A stretch of 64,000 nt of DNA from Candidatus Eiseniibacteriota bacterium (GTDB lineage: Bacteria > Eisenbacteria > RBG-16-71-46 > JABDJR01). Below the pieces are notes generated by a model, which saw nothing but the letters and a program-made list of their open reading frames with translations, had not been told where the DNA came from and searched no databases. Both the position numbers and the translations under genes were made by a program. Location of the stretch: contig CAWANH010000028.1 in the NCBI GenBank assembly GCA_963783375.1, positions 544,001-608,000 on the forward strand, given 5' to 3'. Below are positions 55,575 to 64,000 of the stretch, in pieces; the stretch's first letter is position 1; every line of letters starts with the position of its first letter.

Positions 55575-56396
55575 TCAGGGCAGGACGGTCAGCTTACGCG
55601 CCCGGTTCCCCGACTCCGTCTCCAGGTAGATGAAGTATACGCCGGCCGCGACCGGGTTTCCCCGGTCGTCCCGCCCGGTCCAGGTCGACTCGTAGGCCCC
55701 CGCCGGGAGGTCCTCGTCGAGGAGCATCCCCACCAGCCGTCCCCGCTGATCGAAGGCGCGCAGCCTCACGCGGCCCGGCGCCGGGACCTGGAAACGGATG
55801 CGGGAGTGGCCCCGGGCGGGGTTGGGGACCCCCGGCAAGAGCGCCAGGACGGGAGCGACGGGTCCCGGAACCTGGAGATACGCCGGGCCGTGCCAGGTGC
55901 GGTCTCCGGCGCGGCCCCACTCCTCCAGCCAGTAGGCGACCCGCCCCGCCGGAGGCGCCGGGTCGGTGAACCGATACTCCTCGGCGCCTCGGAGAGGCGT
56001 TTCGGTGAGCTGCACGCGAGGTCCCTCACCGAGCTGGCGATGGACCTGAAAACCAACCAGATCGCCCGCATCGTCGAGGGCGCGCCAGGACAGTTCGGCT
56101 CCCCGCGGGGTCCAGAGGGCGTGAAACCACAGGAACCGGACCGGGGTGGGCACACCGTCCAGGGTCCCCGGCCAGAACCCGAGCCAGAGGGCGCGGGATT
56201 CGCCGCCGGCCGCTCCGATCGCCGGTTGACCGAGGCTGACCGTCGCGGATCCCCCGGGTCCGGAGAGCGACATCGCGCCCGAGCTGAAGGCGACGGGGCC
56301 GAGCCGGGTTTGACCGGCCAGCGGGGACGCGAGCAGCGCACTCCCCGCCACCGCGATGAGGACGCCGAGCCGCATTGCCGATCGCCGCGCGCCCAT
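55575..56396 (-). CDS. secreted protein (SSG..S...S.GQP...GFW N-domain) with FlgD-Ig domain; in frame with the upstream gene as sequenced
   Basis: Has its own ATG, GGGGAG RBS and signal peptide (MRLGVLIAVAGSALLASPLAG), plus a PNP...WTGRDDRG..VAAGVY tail. Confidence 0.7.
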   Translation of the reverse strand: MGARRSAMRLGVLIAVAGSALLASPLAGQTRLGPVAFSSGAMSLSGPGGSATVSLGQPAIGAAGGESRALWLGFWPGTLDGVPTPVRFLWFHALWTPRGAELSWRALDDAGDLVGFQVHRQLGEGPRVQLTETPLRGAEEYRFTDPAPPAGRVAYWLEEWGRAGDRTWHGPAYLQVPGPVAPVLALLPGVPNPARGHSRIRFQVPAPGRVRLRAFDQRGRLVGMLLDEDLPAGAYESTWTGRDDRGNPVAAGVYFIYLETESGNRARKLTVLP

Positions 56397-56400
56397 GGGG

Positions 56401-59400
56401 CTACTCCCCCCCGCGGCCCGCGCCCCGTCGCGAGCTGCGGACCCGGTCGTCTCCGCCGCCTCGATCCGGGAGACCCGCTCCAGCAATTGCTTCATCTGGC
56501 TCTCGAGAGCGCTCAGCCGGCGGTCCCGATCGGCCAGCGCGGCCCGGAGCGGGGCGACCGGGGCCCCGACCCCCACCGCCGTCCGGACGAGCTTCGTGCC
56601 GGGAGCGCCGCTGGACGCCCAGGCCGTGCCCACGATCCACTGAGCCTGCTCGGGGGTGAGATCCTCCGGCGCCACCGCGAAGGCGGAGCCGTCGCCCCGG
56701 CCCGAGGCGACCACCGCGTCCCCGGCCCGGACCGGGCCCTCGACCTTCACCCCCACCTGGCCGATGAAGGCGATCTTCTCGAAACCGTCCGCGTGATCCC
56801 CGTCCGGCCGGTTCCCCAGGACGAGAGGGCTTCGGGAGACCACCATGACCGCGTGGGCGCCCTCGGTGCGGCGGGTCACCGCGCCGTCGAAGACGCCGAC
56901 CACATCCCCCGGCTCGAACCGTTCCGAGGGATCGAGGCGGGGCATCCACTCCGCGTAGTCGGAGCCCGGGCCGGAGAACGTCACCCCTCCGGCTCCGTCA
57001 CCCTCGACGGCCCCGGCGCTCCCGGTTCCGGTGACGAAGCTGATGAAGTTCACCGACGAGCCCGGGGTCGTCGTTCCCACCTTGAGGGCGAGGACGTCGG
57101 GGCTCGTGCCGGCACTGGCGTTCTCGATCACCGCGACGTGGTTGGGGATGCTGGCCGCGCCGTTGGCGTTCCCCAGGATATGGAGGCCCGTGGCCGGGCT
57201 GTCGGTGCCCACCCCGACCTTGCCGTCGAAGTGGAACACGTCGTCGTCGCGGTCGTAGAAGAACGCGTCGGCGCCGTCCGTGCCGGTTCCCTCGCTGGTC
57301 CGCTCCAGCACCAGGCGGTTCGGCGAGGTCCGCCAGAGGAGCTGCACTCCCTGATCGGGGGTGTCGTCGTCGAAGATGATTCCGTTGGGCCCGGCGGACC
57401 CGCCTCCCCCGAGCATGATCCCGGTGCCGCCGTTCGGATCCAGGACGTGGAGCTGTTCCCGGGGGGAATTGGTGCCGATCCCGACCCCACCCAGGGCCCG
57501 GATCAGGAACTGGCGGTCGCCGGTGGAGGGGAAGGGAACCAGGTAGCCCCCGTTCGTCTGGCCGTCGTTCCACACGAAAGTCCCCAGGTGCGAGGCCTGT
57601 GCGCCCCGCCCGGCGGCGAAGGAGTGGAGACCCGCGGCCTCGTTTTCCCAGCCACCGGGGACGACGGAGTACTGCCCGGTGGCCGTGTTGTGGAAGCCGC
57701 CGGTGACGACCGAATGGTCTCCCTCCGCAGTATTGGCGTAGGTGGGGAACTGATCCGACCCTCCACCTCCGACGAAGGACCCGTCTCCGCTGGCGGTGTT
57801 CGAAGCGCCGCCGGCCACCGTGGACGCGCGACCCGAGGCGACATTGCCCGCACCGGCCAGCACGATGGAGAGGCTGCCGGTCGCCTCGTTCCTCGAACCC
57901 CCGCCCACGAAACTGATGTAGCCCGAGCTGGTGTTGTGGTTCCCACCGGCCACGCAGGAGCTGGACCCGGAAGCCGCATTCGAGTTTCCGCCCCCGATCG
58001 TCGCATACGACCCCTGGGCGGAGTTGCCGGTGCCGCCGGAAACCGTGGCTCCATCGGCAATCGCGTCATTGCCGGAGCCTCCGCCCACGGTGGCGTTGCC
58101 TCCTTTAGCCTGGTTCGACCGGCCTCCGCTGATCGTGGCCATGAGCCCCGACGCTCGGTTCTCCTGGCCGCCCCCGATGGTGCACCCGCGATCCCAGGCT
58201 TTGTTGAAGCCGCCCCCGGCCACCGTCGTGTTGTCGTCGAGAGCCGAGTTCTCCTGGCCACCCCCGACCATGGAATACTGTCCCAGGGCCGAATCCGCCT
58301 CGCCACCCCCGATGAAGCTGTGCTCACCGGAGGCGATGTTATCGGTGCCGCCTCCGATCGCGGCCAGATTTCGGGCCAGGTTGTGGACCCCGCCGGCGAC
58401 CGTCCCCCCCAGCCCGTCGACGACGTTGCGATCTCCACCCCCCACGGTGGCGTAGCGTCCGTCGAGAAGATCCGCGTTCTCGTTCCCCGCCCGATTGTTG
58501 CGGCCGCCGGCGACCGTTCCGAAGTTGTCCGTGATCTGGTTGGCCAGCTCGGGATCACCCCCGCCACCGATGCTCGCGCCACGCACGCCGGCACTCACGT
58601 TGTTGGACGCGCTCCCCCCGATGACGTTGGGCGTATCTCCCGGCTCCAAGCGGAGCGCTCGCTGGTTGTTCACCCGCAGTTCCAGCGCCTGATCGTCGGT
58701 GGTTCCGAGGAAGGAGGTGGCGGGGTTCGTTCCGGCGTTGCCGGAGAGGCCCCACGCGCCGCCGGTGGCTCCCGCCGCGGTGGTCTGGAGCGTTCCATCG
58801 GGGAACATGATCCCGTCCACGCCCGGCGCGCCGCCGACGTGGAGCGCGGCCTGGGGATCGTTGACGTTGATCCCGACCCCCCCGCCGGCCCGCACCAGGA
58901 ACTGGTTCTCGCCGGTGGACTCGAAGGTCTGGTCGATGCCGTCGGCCCACACGAAGGTGCCGTCGTCGCCGGGACGCACCCGGGCCCGGAGCCCCGCGGC
59001 GAAGCTGTTGGCGCCGTGGGCCTCGTTCTCGTTCCCCCCCGGAACCGTGGCCGCGAAGCCGGTGGCCTGGTTTCCGGTTCCGCCGGCCACGGTCGTGTAC
59101 GCCGATCCGGCCCGGTTGGACTCGCCGCCGCCCACCGTGGACGCCCACCCGTTGGCCTGGTTGCTCTTTCCGCCTCCGACGGTGGCGAAGGGACCGTTCA
59201 TCGGGTCGTCCGAGTCGCCGCCGGCCAGGTGCCCGGCCCCGCCGCCGATCGTCCCGTAGTGGGCGGAAACGCGGTTCCCCCCGACCTCCGGGGCGTCGGT
59301 TCCTCCGCCCCCCGCGATCGTCGCGCCCACCACCCCGGCACCTACGGTGTTGGCCTCCGATCCCCCGATCAGGTTCCGGCCGGTGCCGAAGTCGTTGCCG

Positions 59401-60866
59401 GTGGCGACCCCCGGCTCCAGGCGCAAGGCCCGCTTGCCGTCGACATGAACCTCCAGCGGGGCGTCGTTCGATGTGCCCAGGTACTGCGCGACCGGATCGG
59501 TGACGGCGTTCCCGCCGAGTTTCCAGGCCGTCGTGTCCTGGCCGTTCCCCCCGCCGGCATGGATCGTGATCGTGTGGCCGGCCTGGTCCAGGGTCACGTT
59601 GTCCCCGGCGGCCAGGGTCACCGCGTCGGCCAGCCCGTTCACCGAGGTCACCGCGGCGCCGGGAGCCAGCTTCGCCAGGCTCACCGCCCCGTTGGCGAGC
59701 TTGCCCGCCGTCACCGCCCCGTCCGCGAGCTTCGCGGTCGAAACGCCCCCGCTCTTCACGTTGATCGTGGCCACCGGCCCGTTGGGGTTGGTCAGGGCGA
59801 GCGCGCCGTCCGTGTTCTGAACCCCCTGAATTCCCGAGGCCCCTTCCCCGAGGACGGAGTTGATGATCAGGGTGTCGCCGCTGGTGGAGACGGTCGTTCC
59901 TCCCGAGCCCGATACGATCACCCCGTCGGTCAGGCCGTTGAGGTCGGTCACCGCCGCCCCGGTCGCGAGCTCCGGGTTCGGGTAAGTCCCGGCGAGATCG
60001 CCGCCGGCGGGTCCGGCCGGGGTCCGTGGATCGGCCAGCCGCGAATCCTGATCCGTCACGTATCGGTTGTCGTTCGACGGCTGCCCGTGCGTGCCGGCCA
60101 GGGCGCCCTTCTCGCCGGGCGTGGGGTCGTTCGCGTTGTCGTGGGTGGGATGGTCCAGCGCCAGCTTGCTCTCCGGGATGCCGCCCGAGGCCAGATCGAC
60201 GGTCACGGTGGGACCGGTGGGATCCGACACCTTCAGGAAGCCGTCGCTGTTCTGCACCCCCAGGATCCCGGAGCCGCCCTCCCCGATGATGGAGGTGACG
60301 ATCAGGGTGTCCCCGGACGTTGAGATCGTCGTTCCCCCCCCTCCTTTCAGGTGCAGCGCGCCCGCCAGCCCGTTGAGGGCGGTCACCACCGCCCCGGGGG
60401 AGATCTTTGCCCCGGTCACCGCGCCGTCCGCGAGCGCCCTGCTGCCGACCGCCCCCTCCGCCAGCTTCGCGCCGGTGATCGCGCCGTCCTCCACGGAGGC
60501 CGCGGCCAAACTGTAGGGAACCGAGGTCAGGGGGATCCGGGGCGCGAACTCGGGGTCCGGCGCCAGTTGGATCCCCACATAGTAGGGAGCGTCGAAATTC
60601 AGCCCGAACGGAACCGTCTCCCCGAGGACCACGCTGAAGACGCCTCCGCTGGTAGAGACATCAAGAGTCTCCGTCCAGAGCGGCTCGCCTGCCTCGGCCG
60701 TATCGTAGATGCCGAAGACGGCCTCGTACACGCCGTCGGGAACCGCGTTGCCGTCCGTATCCCGGAGGACCCCCTGGACCGACAGGGTGCGCGGGACGGC
60801 CGCGGCGGCGGCGCCGACGGACACCGCCAAGGTGAGCAACGCGGTGAGGACGATCAGATGCTTCAC
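56401..60866 (-). CDS. secreted tail-fibre-like trimeric protein with C-terminal intramolecular chaperone (peptidase G2/S74-like) and coiled coil
   Basis: AAGGAG plus GTG start and signal peptide. AVTxAKLA repeats, VTxLNGL repeats, TVGGGxxNxA beta-repeats, VGIGT.SP repeats, DYAEW...PGDVV...GQV.VKV.G.V..GD, heptad tail. The stop (TAG at 56403-56401) is in frame only with one extra G. Confidence 0.78.
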
Positions 60867-60890
60867 GGGAACCACTCCTTCCGATCGGGC

Positions 60891-60900
60891 GGGGGGGGGG
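60891..60900. repeat. G10/C10 homopolymer in the leader of the fibre gene
   Basis: Ten consecutive G at 60891-60900. Confidence 0.9.
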
Positions 60901-60927
60901 AACCGGCGGATCGCGCGGCGCCCCCGG

Positions 60928-61104
60928 CTATTTCTCCGGGGGCCTCGGTTCAACGAGCCAGCCGGCCAGTTCCTCGACGGACGTGAACCGGAATTCGGCC
61001 CCGCCGGGAAACCGGACCGCCTTGCCCCGGCACTCCCCGGGACGCCGGACGAGGACGAGCAGGATGCGTTCGGGTCTCGAGTGAGGCTTCTCGGGCTTGG
61101 TCAT
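60928..61104 (-). CDS. small hypothetical protein (58 aa)
   Basis: MTKPEK...RILLVLVRR...G....F.SVEELAGWL. AAGGA RBS. Lies between the regulator and the fibre gene. Confidence 0.6.
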   Translation of the reverse strand: MTKPEKPHSRPERILLVLVRRPGECRGKAVRFPGGAEFRFTSVEELAGWLVEPRPPEK

Positions 61105-61203
61105 GGGGGAATCCTTGACCGGACCGCTCACAAATCACTCACAGGATTCGGTTGCAGTCATTTAGTATCCACTCAACCCGATCTCCGGCTTCAGGTTGTG
61201 GAA

Positions 61204-64000
61204 ATGTCGCTCCTACGATCCAAAATCCGGGCGCCCTCGCTGCCTCCCCACGCCATCGAGCGGGCCCGGCTCAGGGACAGGCTTCTGGAACCGGCCTGGA
61301 GGCTCGTCGTGCTCCAGGCCCCGGCGGGTTACGGCAAGACGGTGCTTGCCGCCCAGGTCCAGGCATCGGAGCCGGACCGGACCGCCTGGCTATACCTGGA
61401 GCCCGAAGATGCCGATCCACGGCGCTTCTGCCGGTACCTCGCGGGCGCCCTTCGGGAAGTTCTCCCCGCGCTGGCCGGCACCGAGATCACGAAGCCCGCG
61501 AACGGGGGGGAATTCGATCCGGACGCCTGGGTCGAGGACCTGCTCCTGTTCTTCCACGAGTTCCACAGTTCGCGGGTCCGGCTCGTGCTCGACAACTTCG
61601 AATCGGTGGCCGACGAGCCGGTCGTGAACCGGGTCGTCGATCGCCTGCTCCGGCACGCCGGCGAGGCCATGAGCCTTCTCATCACGACCCGAAGCGACCC
61701 GGGTTTCCCGCTCCAGAAACTGGTCGAGCGGAAGGAGGCCCTCAAGCTCACCGCTCGGAATCTGGCGTTCGACCTCGATGAGTTCAAGAGCGCCGCGCGG
61801 GCCCAGGGGAAGAAGATCCCGCCGACCGACCTGGAGTCGGTGTGGGCGCAGAGCGAGGGTTGGTGCGTGTACCTGGGACTGGGACTGGGGACCGGACCGG
61901 AGGCCCGCCCGCTCTCCCCGGCCTCATCCGGCATCACCGGTTACCTCGAGGAGGAGATCCTCCGCCGCATGCCGGAGAATCAAGCGCGCGTGCTGCGCGA
62001 CACCTGCGTCCTGGACGTGGTTTCCGCCGAGGGGATGGATGCCCTGGGCTTGAACGGGGAGAACTTCCACGAACAGGTCCTGGAACTGGGTCGCCGGGGG
62101 GTACCTCACCTCACCGTGATGGAAGGCGAAGCCGTCCGTCTTCATCCCTTGGTCCGGGGGAAACTGCTTCAGGATCTGCGGCAAAGCCCGCCGACGGAGG
62201 GAAAGCGGAACCTCCTGGACCGGGCGAGCGGGTTCTACCGGTCCCGGGGGCGGAGCGACGCCGCGGTACGGATCCTGCTCGAACTCGAAGCCTACGAACC
62301 GGCCCTGGAGACCCTGTCCGCGAGCTGGGTGGAGCTCGAGGAACAGCAACTCCTTCCCCAGGTGGCCGGCTGGTTGGAGATGTTGCCCCACGGCTATCGC
62401 TCCCATCCGCTCTTCGCGCTGAGCCGGCTTCGGGTGTTCCGCTTCGAGGGCGAGAACCTCCAGATGATCGAATACGCGAACCGTCTGCGCGCCGAGGGAA
62501 CCCTGACCGAAGATTCCCCGGTCTACCCTCAGCTGTGGACCCTCGAGGCCTGGGCCCGGGCCCATCTCGGCAGCGCCAGCTACGGGGAGCTCCGGGCGGA
62601 ATGGGAGCAGCTCCGGGAACGGCTCGACCCCGGAAGCCGGCTCTCGGCCGAATACACCCTCATCGTGGCCGCCCTGTACGACCTGAAGTTCGCCGCGGCG
62701 GATGAGCACACCGGAAGGGCGCTCGCCCTGACCCCTTCCGACTCGGTGACGAATCGCGCGAGGATCCTGAACGCCAGAGGGGTCGTGCTCCACGAGATGG
62801 GGCGTTCCCGCGAAGCCTGCAAGCTGTTCGAGGAGGCCATCTCGAAGTGCCGGCGCCACGGCGAGACGACTTACCAGACCCTGAACCTCCTGGGCAAGGC
62901 ATTCCTCTGCAAGGACGTCGGGCGGTTCCAGGAATCGCTCGAGGTGACCCGGGAGTGTCTGGACGTCGCCCGCGACTCCGGATCCACCCGGTTGGTCCTG
63001 ATCGCTCACGCGGCCCGCACCCGGGGAGAGGTGTTCTGGTACACCGGCCGCTGGACCGATGCCTTTGCCGAGCTGGAGGAATCGTACCGTCTGTTCCAGG
63101 ACTCCAACCGGCACGAGGCGCTGGCGACCGGGGTCCTGATCGATCACTGGCAATCGATCCGGGGGAAACGATCCGATCTCGTTTCCGACGACGACTTCCA
63201 GGGGCGCTTGTCGGTCTCCGAGGCGCGGGTTCGCTATCTCATCCGGAGAAGCCGGGGGGAGACCCGCGCCGGGGATGCCGGGGCCGGCGCCCGCTCCGCC
63301 CGGGAAGGACGGGAGATGGCGCGGGAGATGCCCGCCTGGCAGGCGACGGCGTGGTTCACCGAAGCGTGGGCGCGCGACTCCCTCGGGGATCGAACGGAGT
63401 GCGCCGCCGCCCTGGCCGCGGGACTGGGCATCCTCGAGGAACTGGACCGCTCCGCCTACCCGCTCGCCGACCCGGAGCTCACCGGGTGGCTGTCGGCGGA
63501 GGCCGTGGCCCGGGACATCCGGGTGGAACGCGCGCTGTCCCTGGTCACCGGCGAGAGCCGGATCGACCTTCAGCCGGCCTGGAGCCGGGCCCTCGATCTC
63601 GCGGGGCGGCCGGGACCCGAGAAGGTGAGGCTGGTCGGGGCGGCGGTCCGCCTTCGGATCCGCGGTCTCGACGACCTCGTCGCCGCGTGCACCCAGGTCC
63701 CGGATCCGCCCAAACACGCCTATGCGGCCATGGCGGCGACGGCCCCGCTGCCTTCGCTTCGGGTCCGGCTGTTCGGGCCCTTCGAGGTGCTGGAAAGCGG
63801 GCGCGAGATCCGCTTCCCGAGAACGGCCGCCCGCCGGATCCTCGAGATCCTGCTCCTGGAGCACCCGCGGCCGGTTCACGAAGAGCGCCTCCTGGACCTG
63901 ATCTGGCCGGACGCGGAGCCCTCGAAGGCGAAGCGGAACCTTCAGACCTGCGTCAACGAGCTCCGGAGAAGCCTCGACCCGCACCACCGCCCGCGACGGG
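61204..64000 (+). CDS. MalT-like STAND ATPase + TPR + SARP-type winged-helix regulator (3' partial)
   Basis: Absent from the ORF track because it has no stop in the window. Hand translation gives MSLLRSKIRAP...IERARL...QAPAGYGKT, LVLDNFE, SEGW, YLEEEIL, and at the end LRVRLFGPFEV...LLDLIWPD...NLQTCVNELRRSL. Confidence 0.88.
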   Translation, partial: MSLLRSKIRAPSLPPHAIERARLRDRLLEPAWRLVVLQAPAGYGKTVLAAQVQASEPDRTAWLYLEPEDADPRRFCRYLAGALREVLPALAGTEITKPANGGEFDPDAWVEDLLLFFHEFHSSRVRLVLDNFESVADEPVVNRVVDRLLRHAGEAMSLLITTRSDPGFPLQKLVERKEALKLTARNLAFDLDEFKSAARAQGKKIPPTDLESVWAQSEGWCVYLGLGLGTGPEARPLSPASSGITGYLEEEILRRMPENQARVLRDTCVLDVVSAEGMDALGLNGENFHEQVLELGRRGVPHLTVMEGEAVRLHPLVRGKLLQDLRQSPPTEGKRNLLDRASGFYRSRGRSDAAVRILLELEAYEPALETLSASWVELEEQQLLPQVAGWLEMLPHGYRSHPLFALSRLRVFRFEGENLQMIEYANRLRAEGTLTEDSPVYPQLWTLEAWARAHLGSASYGELRAEWEQLRERLDPGSRLSAEYTLIVAALYDLKFAAADEHTGRALALTPSDSVTNRARILNARGVVLHEMGRSREACKLFEEAISKCRRHGETTYQTLNLLGKAFLCKDVGRFQESLEVTRECLDVARDSGSTRLVLIAHAARTRGEVFWYTGRWTDAFAELEESYRLFQDSNRHEALATGVLIDHWQSIRGKRSDLVSDDDFQGRLSVSEARVRYLIRRSRGETRAGDAGAGARSAREGREMAREMPAWQATAWFTEAWARDSLGDRTECAAALAAGLGILEELDRSAYPLADPELTGWLSAEAVARDIRVERALSLVTGESRIDLQPAWSRALDLAGRPGPEKVRLVGAAVRLRIRGLDDLVAACTQVPDPPKHAYAAMAATAPLPSLRVRLFGPFEVLESGREIRFPRTAARRILEILLLEHPRPVHEERLLDLIWPDAEPSKAKRNLQTCVNELRRSLDPHHRPRR

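Follow-up and report, generated by a model that had tools for sequence, protein, structure and literature searches.

The question raised by this locus is how a long, apparently exported fibre that carries no sorting signal of its own could be brought to the bacterial surface and held there. The locus occupies positions 55575 to 64000 of a 64,000-nucleotide stretch of a Candidatus Eiseniibacteriota genome (hereafter the window; GenBank assembly GCA_963783375.1, contig CAWANH010000028.1, positions 544,001 to 608,000), which lies within a 2.04-Mb contig of a 4.7-Mb genome of 69% guanine-plus-cytosine (GC) content. A first-pass annotation of the letters had described a host-encoded fibre in which an exported-type start and repeats are followed by a C-terminal chaperone and coiled coil, and had proposed a small neighbouring protein as its adaptor or anchor. 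All of these fibre parts were found, and the core of the proposal, a host fibre without its own tag served by a partner, is supported by gene neighbourhoods and by the distribution of sorting tags. To judge from sequence comparison, a two-gene module of fibre and adaptor is real and host-encoded, and the genomic case for it is strong. We give about an even chance to a fuller reading, in which the tag-less fibre has a base domain related to that of the mosaic adhesive trimer (MAT) fibres of Bdellovibrio, and a partner tagged for the type IX secretion system (T9SS) docks on this base, exports the fibre through the T9SS and moors it.

A fibre gene and a partner gene

As read, the window shows no stop between fibre and partner, and a single frame of 1,763 amino acids (aa) runs to position 55575 on the minus strand. 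The two separate genes that had been annotated appear once a G-run has eight bases. In the window this run is a 7-base homopolymer (56406..56412), followed in the direction of the genes by an out-of-frame TAG, a GGAG site and the ATG of the partner; with eight bases it yields two products, a fibre of 1,488 aa and a partner of 273 aa. The extra base is present in the contigs of 4/4 sequencing runs that cover the site (X2, X3, X4 and X7; X1, X5, X6 and X9 do not reach it and are left out of this count), and P0002, a near-identical 1,488-aa protein encoded on a different 2.39-Mb contig, ends exactly at that TAG. On these two grounds we read the fusion as a probable assembly error, and the two-gene reading is most likely correct. 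The frame could also be genuine in this strain, a frameshift having fused fibre and partner into one protein, whose self-cleavage would then remove its tag. The fused frame is, after all, directly visible in the window, and the closest run, X1, does not span the G-run, the covering runs coming from other strains that are 90-99% alike. Nevertheless, we consider a genuine fusion highly unlikely, since all covering runs and P0002 contradict it, the frameshift falls in a homopolymer, and the partner retains its own ribosome site, ATG and signal-peptide-like start. A single homopolymer base can thus mimic a fibre with its own tag, which calls for caution.

The fibre gene (56401..60866, minus strand) starts at GTG 60866 behind an AGGAG site, with a start that looks like a signal peptide by eye, and in its split form ends at the TAG at 56403-56401 without a T9SS-type tag. 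Directly after the signal peptide lies a base domain of ~105 aa (residues 24-125; 60494..60797, minus strand), predicted as a MAT_N-related beta-sandwich with an AlphaFold2 predicted local distance difference test (pLDDT) score of 88. No Pfam family matches it in a Pfam scan. The only NCBIfam match of the base domain is the Bdellovibrio MAT N-domain NF053851, found in 35/41 homologues with a best E of 1.8e-13; the window fibre itself reaches 19-25 bits, where the cut-off is 60, and its position after the signal peptide agrees. By sequence, then, the window base domain is homologous to the MAT N-domain, yet it is no curated member of NF053851. A fold search with the base-domain model returned generic Ig-like sandwiches (best Z 6.8) with no specific relative and no viral fold match at E<=0.001, and neither the base nor the partner alignment, run as a profile against PDB sequences, produced a significant match. 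The base-domain profile matches 98,858 clusters at 50% identity (E<=0.001), and by source name its homologues include one protein each from Ardenticatenia, Betaproteobacteria and Uhrbacteria. Some database proteins (P0030-P0042) have 2-4 tandem base domains per chain, an arrangement that could bind a partner without trimerising.

Beyond the base, a UspA1/MAT-like beta-roll stalk (57773..59318, minus strand) contains 22 [IV][GAS]GG repeat motifs (5 + 17), mostly with a 15-residue period. A profile of full-length homologues matches the MAT fibre structures 8OND (Bd2133, E 1e-22), 8OJN and 8OML as well as UspA1 (3PR7), and UspA1_rep falls slightly below its cut-off in homologue P0003. Fibre C-termini are variable, forming 23 groups among 61 fibres, and the base domain is common to them, which makes it the common docking candidate.

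The intramolecular chaperone named by the first-pass annotation is present (56549..56963, minus strand), and profile and fold searches assign it to the phi29 gp12 D4/Peptidase_G2 type, not to S74. Its fold matches gp12 D4 in Foldseek (E 2.4e-4 and 7.2e-4), and profile matches to this type range from E 2e-7 to 6e-5; a single-sequence PDB search found no match where the profile search did. The window protein itself matches neither the Peptidase_G2 Pfam family (PF11962) nor S74, while Peptidase_G2 is over its cut-off in 3/5 homologues scanned. The D, A and E of the D-x-A-E motif are invariant in 16/16 homologues. Because the D of this motif is the first residue of 3GQH, the released fragment of gp12, alignment places the predicted autocleavage of the fibre at S1302/D1303, within the window motif S-D-Y-A-E. 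A long C-terminal helix, a predicted coiled coil, follows (56415..56558, minus strand; helix 217-264 of the modelled fragment). The chaperone type recurs in other settings: P0025-P0028, one of them named as Uhrbacteria of the Candidate Phyla Radiation (CPR), combine a base domain with a chaperone motif that lies internally, ~650-690 residues before the C-terminus, and P0004, P0005, P0010, P0014-P0016, P0019 and P0020 join the same gp12-type chaperone to a different N-terminus without a signal peptide. From their resemblance we take the latter to be possibly baseplate-attached fibres of contractile systems.

The partner gene (55575..56396, minus strand) has a GGAG site and an ATG, and its 273-aa product begins with a signal-peptide-like start (judged by eye), followed by a Gly-rich domain, a probable Ig-like spacer and a T9SS type-A-like C-terminal domain. 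This bears out the annotated combination of a short Gly-rich domain (LGQP...GFW) with FlgD_ig. The proposed docking domain of ~56 aa (residues 29-84; 56145..56312, minus strand) belongs to no Pfam, NCBIfam or PDB family and has an internal period of ~19 residues. In a profile-shift test this period gave z 3.3-4.0 against column shuffles as the best of 32 shifts, which lends modest support to three internal repeats. An ESM Atlas match of the partner domain (0.79) is a lead only. At the other end, the FlgD_ig domain (55578..55841, minus strand) is over its Pfam cut-off and scores 19.6 in TIGR04183 (cut-off 23). No promoter or terminator consensus was found downstream of the partner.

The FlgD_ig-type domain of the partner is one of 121 in the genome, and 117 of these are terminal; by this distribution we take the domain to act as a sorting tag. 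The genome encodes SprA and PorV, both over cut-off, and a near-full-length PorU-like gene (377 bits against a cut-off of 420) adjoins a PorV gene. The partner thus combines the signal-peptide-like start and terminal sorting domain of T9SS type-A cargo in a genome with T9SS genes. In all there are 13 PorV-family matches, of which 6 exceed the cut-off, as well as several PorU/C25-like proteins; for a genome outside the Bacteroidota this is an expanded set of T9SS shuttle components.

Co-occurrence, tags and the proposed adaptor

A partner profile was built from loci around base domains, and both profiles were then run on 41 genomes of the class. Among partner matches not used in building the profile (held-out matches), 18/24 have a base domain on their own strand no more than 1.6 kb away, where 0.1 would be expected. 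Three of the other six stand directly behind fibre-like genes that are contig-cut or missed by the base profile, one is at a contig end, and two are weak matches in frames of 36 and 69 aa. Seen from the other side, 52/75 base-domain matches have a partner within 5 kb, with the partner lying upstream 31 times and downstream 11 times, and 21 genomes have both proteins, 16 neither and 4 only one. The pair also occurs elsewhere: the base domain was found in 17/61 genomes of a Bacteroidota sample, and in 79 metagenome loci of a Chloroflexota-type subfamily the partner is present in 36/66 base-domain loci, most of the other 30 ending within 500 bases of the fibre at contig ends. The window genome has a second module (L001:9672-14166; G000:C29, about 1,054.7-1,059.2 kb) of one partner followed by two base-domain fibres without the gp12-type chaperone, placed between recA/recX-like genes and alanyl-tRNA synthetase; similar loci are found in genomes G001-G006. 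A further locus, L051 (G024:C4:289000-300000), has four tandem, near-equal base-domain genes and then a single partner gene.

Tags were counted on unique complete open reading frames (ORFs). None of 129 base-domain proteins carries a T9SS-type tag (class 0/61, Bacteroidota 0/16, metagenome 0/52), nor does any of 166 further database base-domain proteins (0/166). The fibre had been said to lack its own C-terminal sorting domain, and this stands for the split form P0002 as for these 129 complete homologues. All partners from the Fibrobacterota, Chlorobiota and Bacteroidota (FCB) group carry the tag (50/50; class 44/44, Bacteroidota 6/6), and the Bacteroidota partners pass TIGR04183. The metagenome partners (n=39) end instead in a YLP-box (23), FYRL (5) or dockerin-like tail (4), with no T9SS tag (0), and YLP or FYRL is on 0/52 metagenome fibres. 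The YLP-box corresponds to NF050076, over cut-off in one member; the FYRL and dockerin labels, and the lineages tied to them, are presumptive. Since the pair recurs with the tag swapped per host, the small protein likely docks on the fibre base and lends it export and mooring.

The proposed course of events begins with both proteins entering the periplasm, presumably by Sec, as their signal-peptide-like starts suggest. The gp12-type chaperone would trimerise the stalk and then cut itself off at the predicted site, as its phi29 counterpart does. A tag at the fibre C-terminus would therefore be lost, and it would also moor the wrong end. The roughly three-repeat partner domain may bind three base domains, as co-occurrence and matching subtypes suggest. 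Its tag would then bring it to SprA/PorV, and attaching it to the cell surface would fall to the PorU-like enzyme; the genes are present, and the roles are those of SprA, PorV and PorU in the T9SS of Bacteroidota. By comparison with MAT fibres, the beta-roll stalk and its tip would face away from the cell and serve in adhesion. A broader claim casts the partner domain as the general receptor so far missing for the MAT-type base domain: a portable pseudo-three-fold plug, docking on a fibre trimer and fused to the sorting signal of its host, that lets the T9SS of FCB bacteria export and anchor large tag-less trimers in trans. We place this slightly short of even.

The partner might instead dock on the base domain and only moor the fibre, which would cross the outer membrane by vesicles, a secretin or a dedicated barrel. 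The same pair exists with non-T9SS tails (YLP-box, dockerin-like), and the accessible part of PMC10769870 describes no route by which Bdellovibrio MAT fibres reach the surface, both of which would fit. We think mooring without export unlikely, given that the T9SS-type tag, and no other anchor, is used by each of the complete FCB-group partners examined, and that the window has neither a barrel nor a secretin gene next to the pair.

Whether the partner binds the fibre at all can be asked from subtypes. Within the class, partner subtype tracks base-domain subtype (Spearman 0.74, 41 pairs), and class pairs with a Chloroflexota-type base domain have a Chloroflexota-type partner domain too, but a T9SS tag. 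However, the Mantel correlation of base with partner domain is 0.23, hardly above that of base with tag (0.20), and the matching subtypes can therefore be put down to operon co-transfer just as readily as to binding. This leaves room for a partner that is a folding aid, a cap or a co-expressed surface protein that does not hold the fibre base, such as a transient chaperone or a tip protein. Some partner domains do weakly resemble PamT, the protein at the tip of a CPR pilus, with E 2e-4 at best, in a single metagenome member; the window member has no match. A role of this non-docking kind seems distinctly improbable, because fibre tips are highly variable and the partner domain is constant, because a surface-sorting tail in every lineage would be superfluous on a periplasmic chaperone that acts transiently, and because the window fibre has its own chaperone.

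Several further observations count, together with the Mantel result, against the docking, export and mooring of the fibre by its partner. Base-domain matches without a partner match within 5 kb number 23/75; contig ends and divergent tagged neighbours (at L049, L055, L052 and L054) explain them in part, and the complete loci L031 and L034 show no tagged neighbour. The genomes are related and not independent. Outside the class, the partner was found in 13/32 short loci (30 Bacteroidota and 2 others), several of these matches being weak. In some lineages the partner has no T9SS tag, so that export there must differ, and T9SS export of a tag-less trimer is not an established process.

Phage relatives, flanks and the divergent regulator

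A fibre with phage-like parts could be a prophage or tailocin remnant. Its stalk segments match PHROG tail-fibre families (E 5.7e-7), and its chaperone matches phage tailspike domains. Against this origin, the fibre has a signal-peptide-like start, a scan of 16 flanking ORFs turned up no phage genes (13 could be named and 3 had no match), and Terminase_6N has no match in the genome. The base domain has no match in 50,697 phage records, in IMG/VR, in PHROGs (0/41) or in plasmids, and the GC content of the locus is level with that of the window. We regard the chance of a remnant as negligible, in line with the annotated absence of phage genes nearby. A prophage tail fibre was likewise rejected, there being no virion genes nearby and no phage-type attachment domain. 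The term 'domesticated', used in the first-pass annotation, fits in part: phages have relatives of the stalk and of the chaperone, but the base domain has no phage match and belongs to a large cellular family.

The flanks consist of carbohydrate-uptake and housekeeping genes. Positions 32161-55359 of the window hold a carbohydrate-uptake cluster with a family-5 ATP-binding cassette (ABC) transporter, GH2-like and GH17-like hydrolases and a 1,174-aa unnamed protein, and also two tagged secreted proteins with carbohydrate-binding-like repeats. About 26 kb past the window end, an ORF (G000:C28:633602-634762) has a C-terminus that by eye is integron-integrase-like; the short ORFs of lower GC content at third codon positions (GC3) that follow it, also judged by eye, may be cassettes.

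Divergent from the fibre operon lies a 1,102-aa regulator of the MalT/SARP type (ATPase-TPR-wHTH-BTAD; 61204..64000, plus strand, ending at ~64512 past the window). The annotated MalT-like ATPase-TPR-SARP architecture is borne out by a weak AAA_22 match together with TPR_MalT, Trans_reg_C and BTAD; the similarity to MalT (E 4e-41) is below cut-off. The 58-aa ORF is present as well (60928..61104, minus strand), with a 98% identical copy in the congener G002 and an ESM Atlas match (0.88) that is a lead only. From the divergent position, regulator and small ORF may control the fibre operon locally. The idea of a four-gene module under a STAND/SARP regulator did not survive the neighbourhood survey, and we reject the arrangement as a conserved unit: regulator and 58-aa ORF stand beside the fibre only in the window and in G002, the small ORF is found in 1/15 other genomes, and a BTAD regulator occurs in 2/79 metagenome loci. 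A small-ORF family is found upstream of 6 metagenome fibre genes, and the window ORF resembles it weakly (hhalign probability 25.5%). The regulator and the 58-aa ORF are not core parts of the module.

Relation to known systems

The closest comparison, missed when the fibre module was first recognised, is with the MAT fibres of Bdellovibrio bacteriovorus. Like them, the window fibre is host-encoded and has a signal-peptide-like start, a conserved beta-rich N-domain (~130 aa in the MAT family), a beta-helical stalk, variable tips and an optional chaperone, predicted here to cleave itself. The matches to 8OND, 8OJN and 8OML and the 23 C-terminal groups agree with the beta-helical stalk and mosaic tips of MAT fibres, and by analogy the fibre most likely would work like a MAT adhesin, a class marked by surface display and the binding of prey glycans. 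Unlike MAT fibres, it is under the NF053851 cut-off, and its chaperone is of the gp12-D4 type; the MAT S74 chaperone with its SDxxxK motif was rejected, the window having S-D-Y-A-E, a gp12 D4 fold and no S74 match. The window host probably belongs to the FCB group, has T9SS genes and is not a known predator, and a tagged partner gene lies alongside the fibre, for which none is named in the accessible part of PMC10769870; Bdellovibrio genomes were outside our survey. The MAT N-domain 'would presumably tightly bind' a surface element awaiting identification (PMC10769870, Caulton et al. 2024), and the accessible part of a 2026 review likewise names none. The pair described here offers a small candidate for this element, left open in PMC10769870 as far as its accessible text goes. 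It also shows the base domain to be a very large cellular family rather than something special to Bdellovibrio.

The chaperone resembles D4 of the phi29 gp12 tailspike (3SUC, 3GQH and 6QZ9; PF11962) and of Dpo31 (28NB) in its fold and in a D-x-A-E motif placed at the start of the released fragment. Unlike phi29 gp12, the window fibre is cellular, apparently Sec-exported and without a virion-attachment domain. A likeness of some partner domains to positions ~7-83 of PamT (NF058579), the tip pilin of the CPR Pam pilus, was not accepted, as the best score is 20.8 bits against a cut-off of 240 and the window partner has no match; in the accessible part of a preprint (PMC13278184), Pam pili are described as Ig pilins polymerised by donor strands, which sets them apart from trimeric fibres. 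Literature searches, with supplements outside their scope, returned no description of the fibre-partner pair, including in the accessible parts of PMC10769870, PMC13278184, PMC9863714 and PMC13689555. An adaptor-mounted adhesive fibre would be an undescribed mounting mode, and its 56-residue plug and 105-residue socket could serve as a surface-display tool.

The partner itself resembles T9SS type-A cargo (TIGR04183/PF18962/PF13860) in its terminal beta-sandwich tag. To our knowledge, known T9SS cargo carry the tag in cis; unlike them, the partner would use its tag for a second protein in trans. If it also exports the fibre, the T9SS would have a trans-acting piggyback mode for tag-less cargo that tag-based secretome predictions would overlook.

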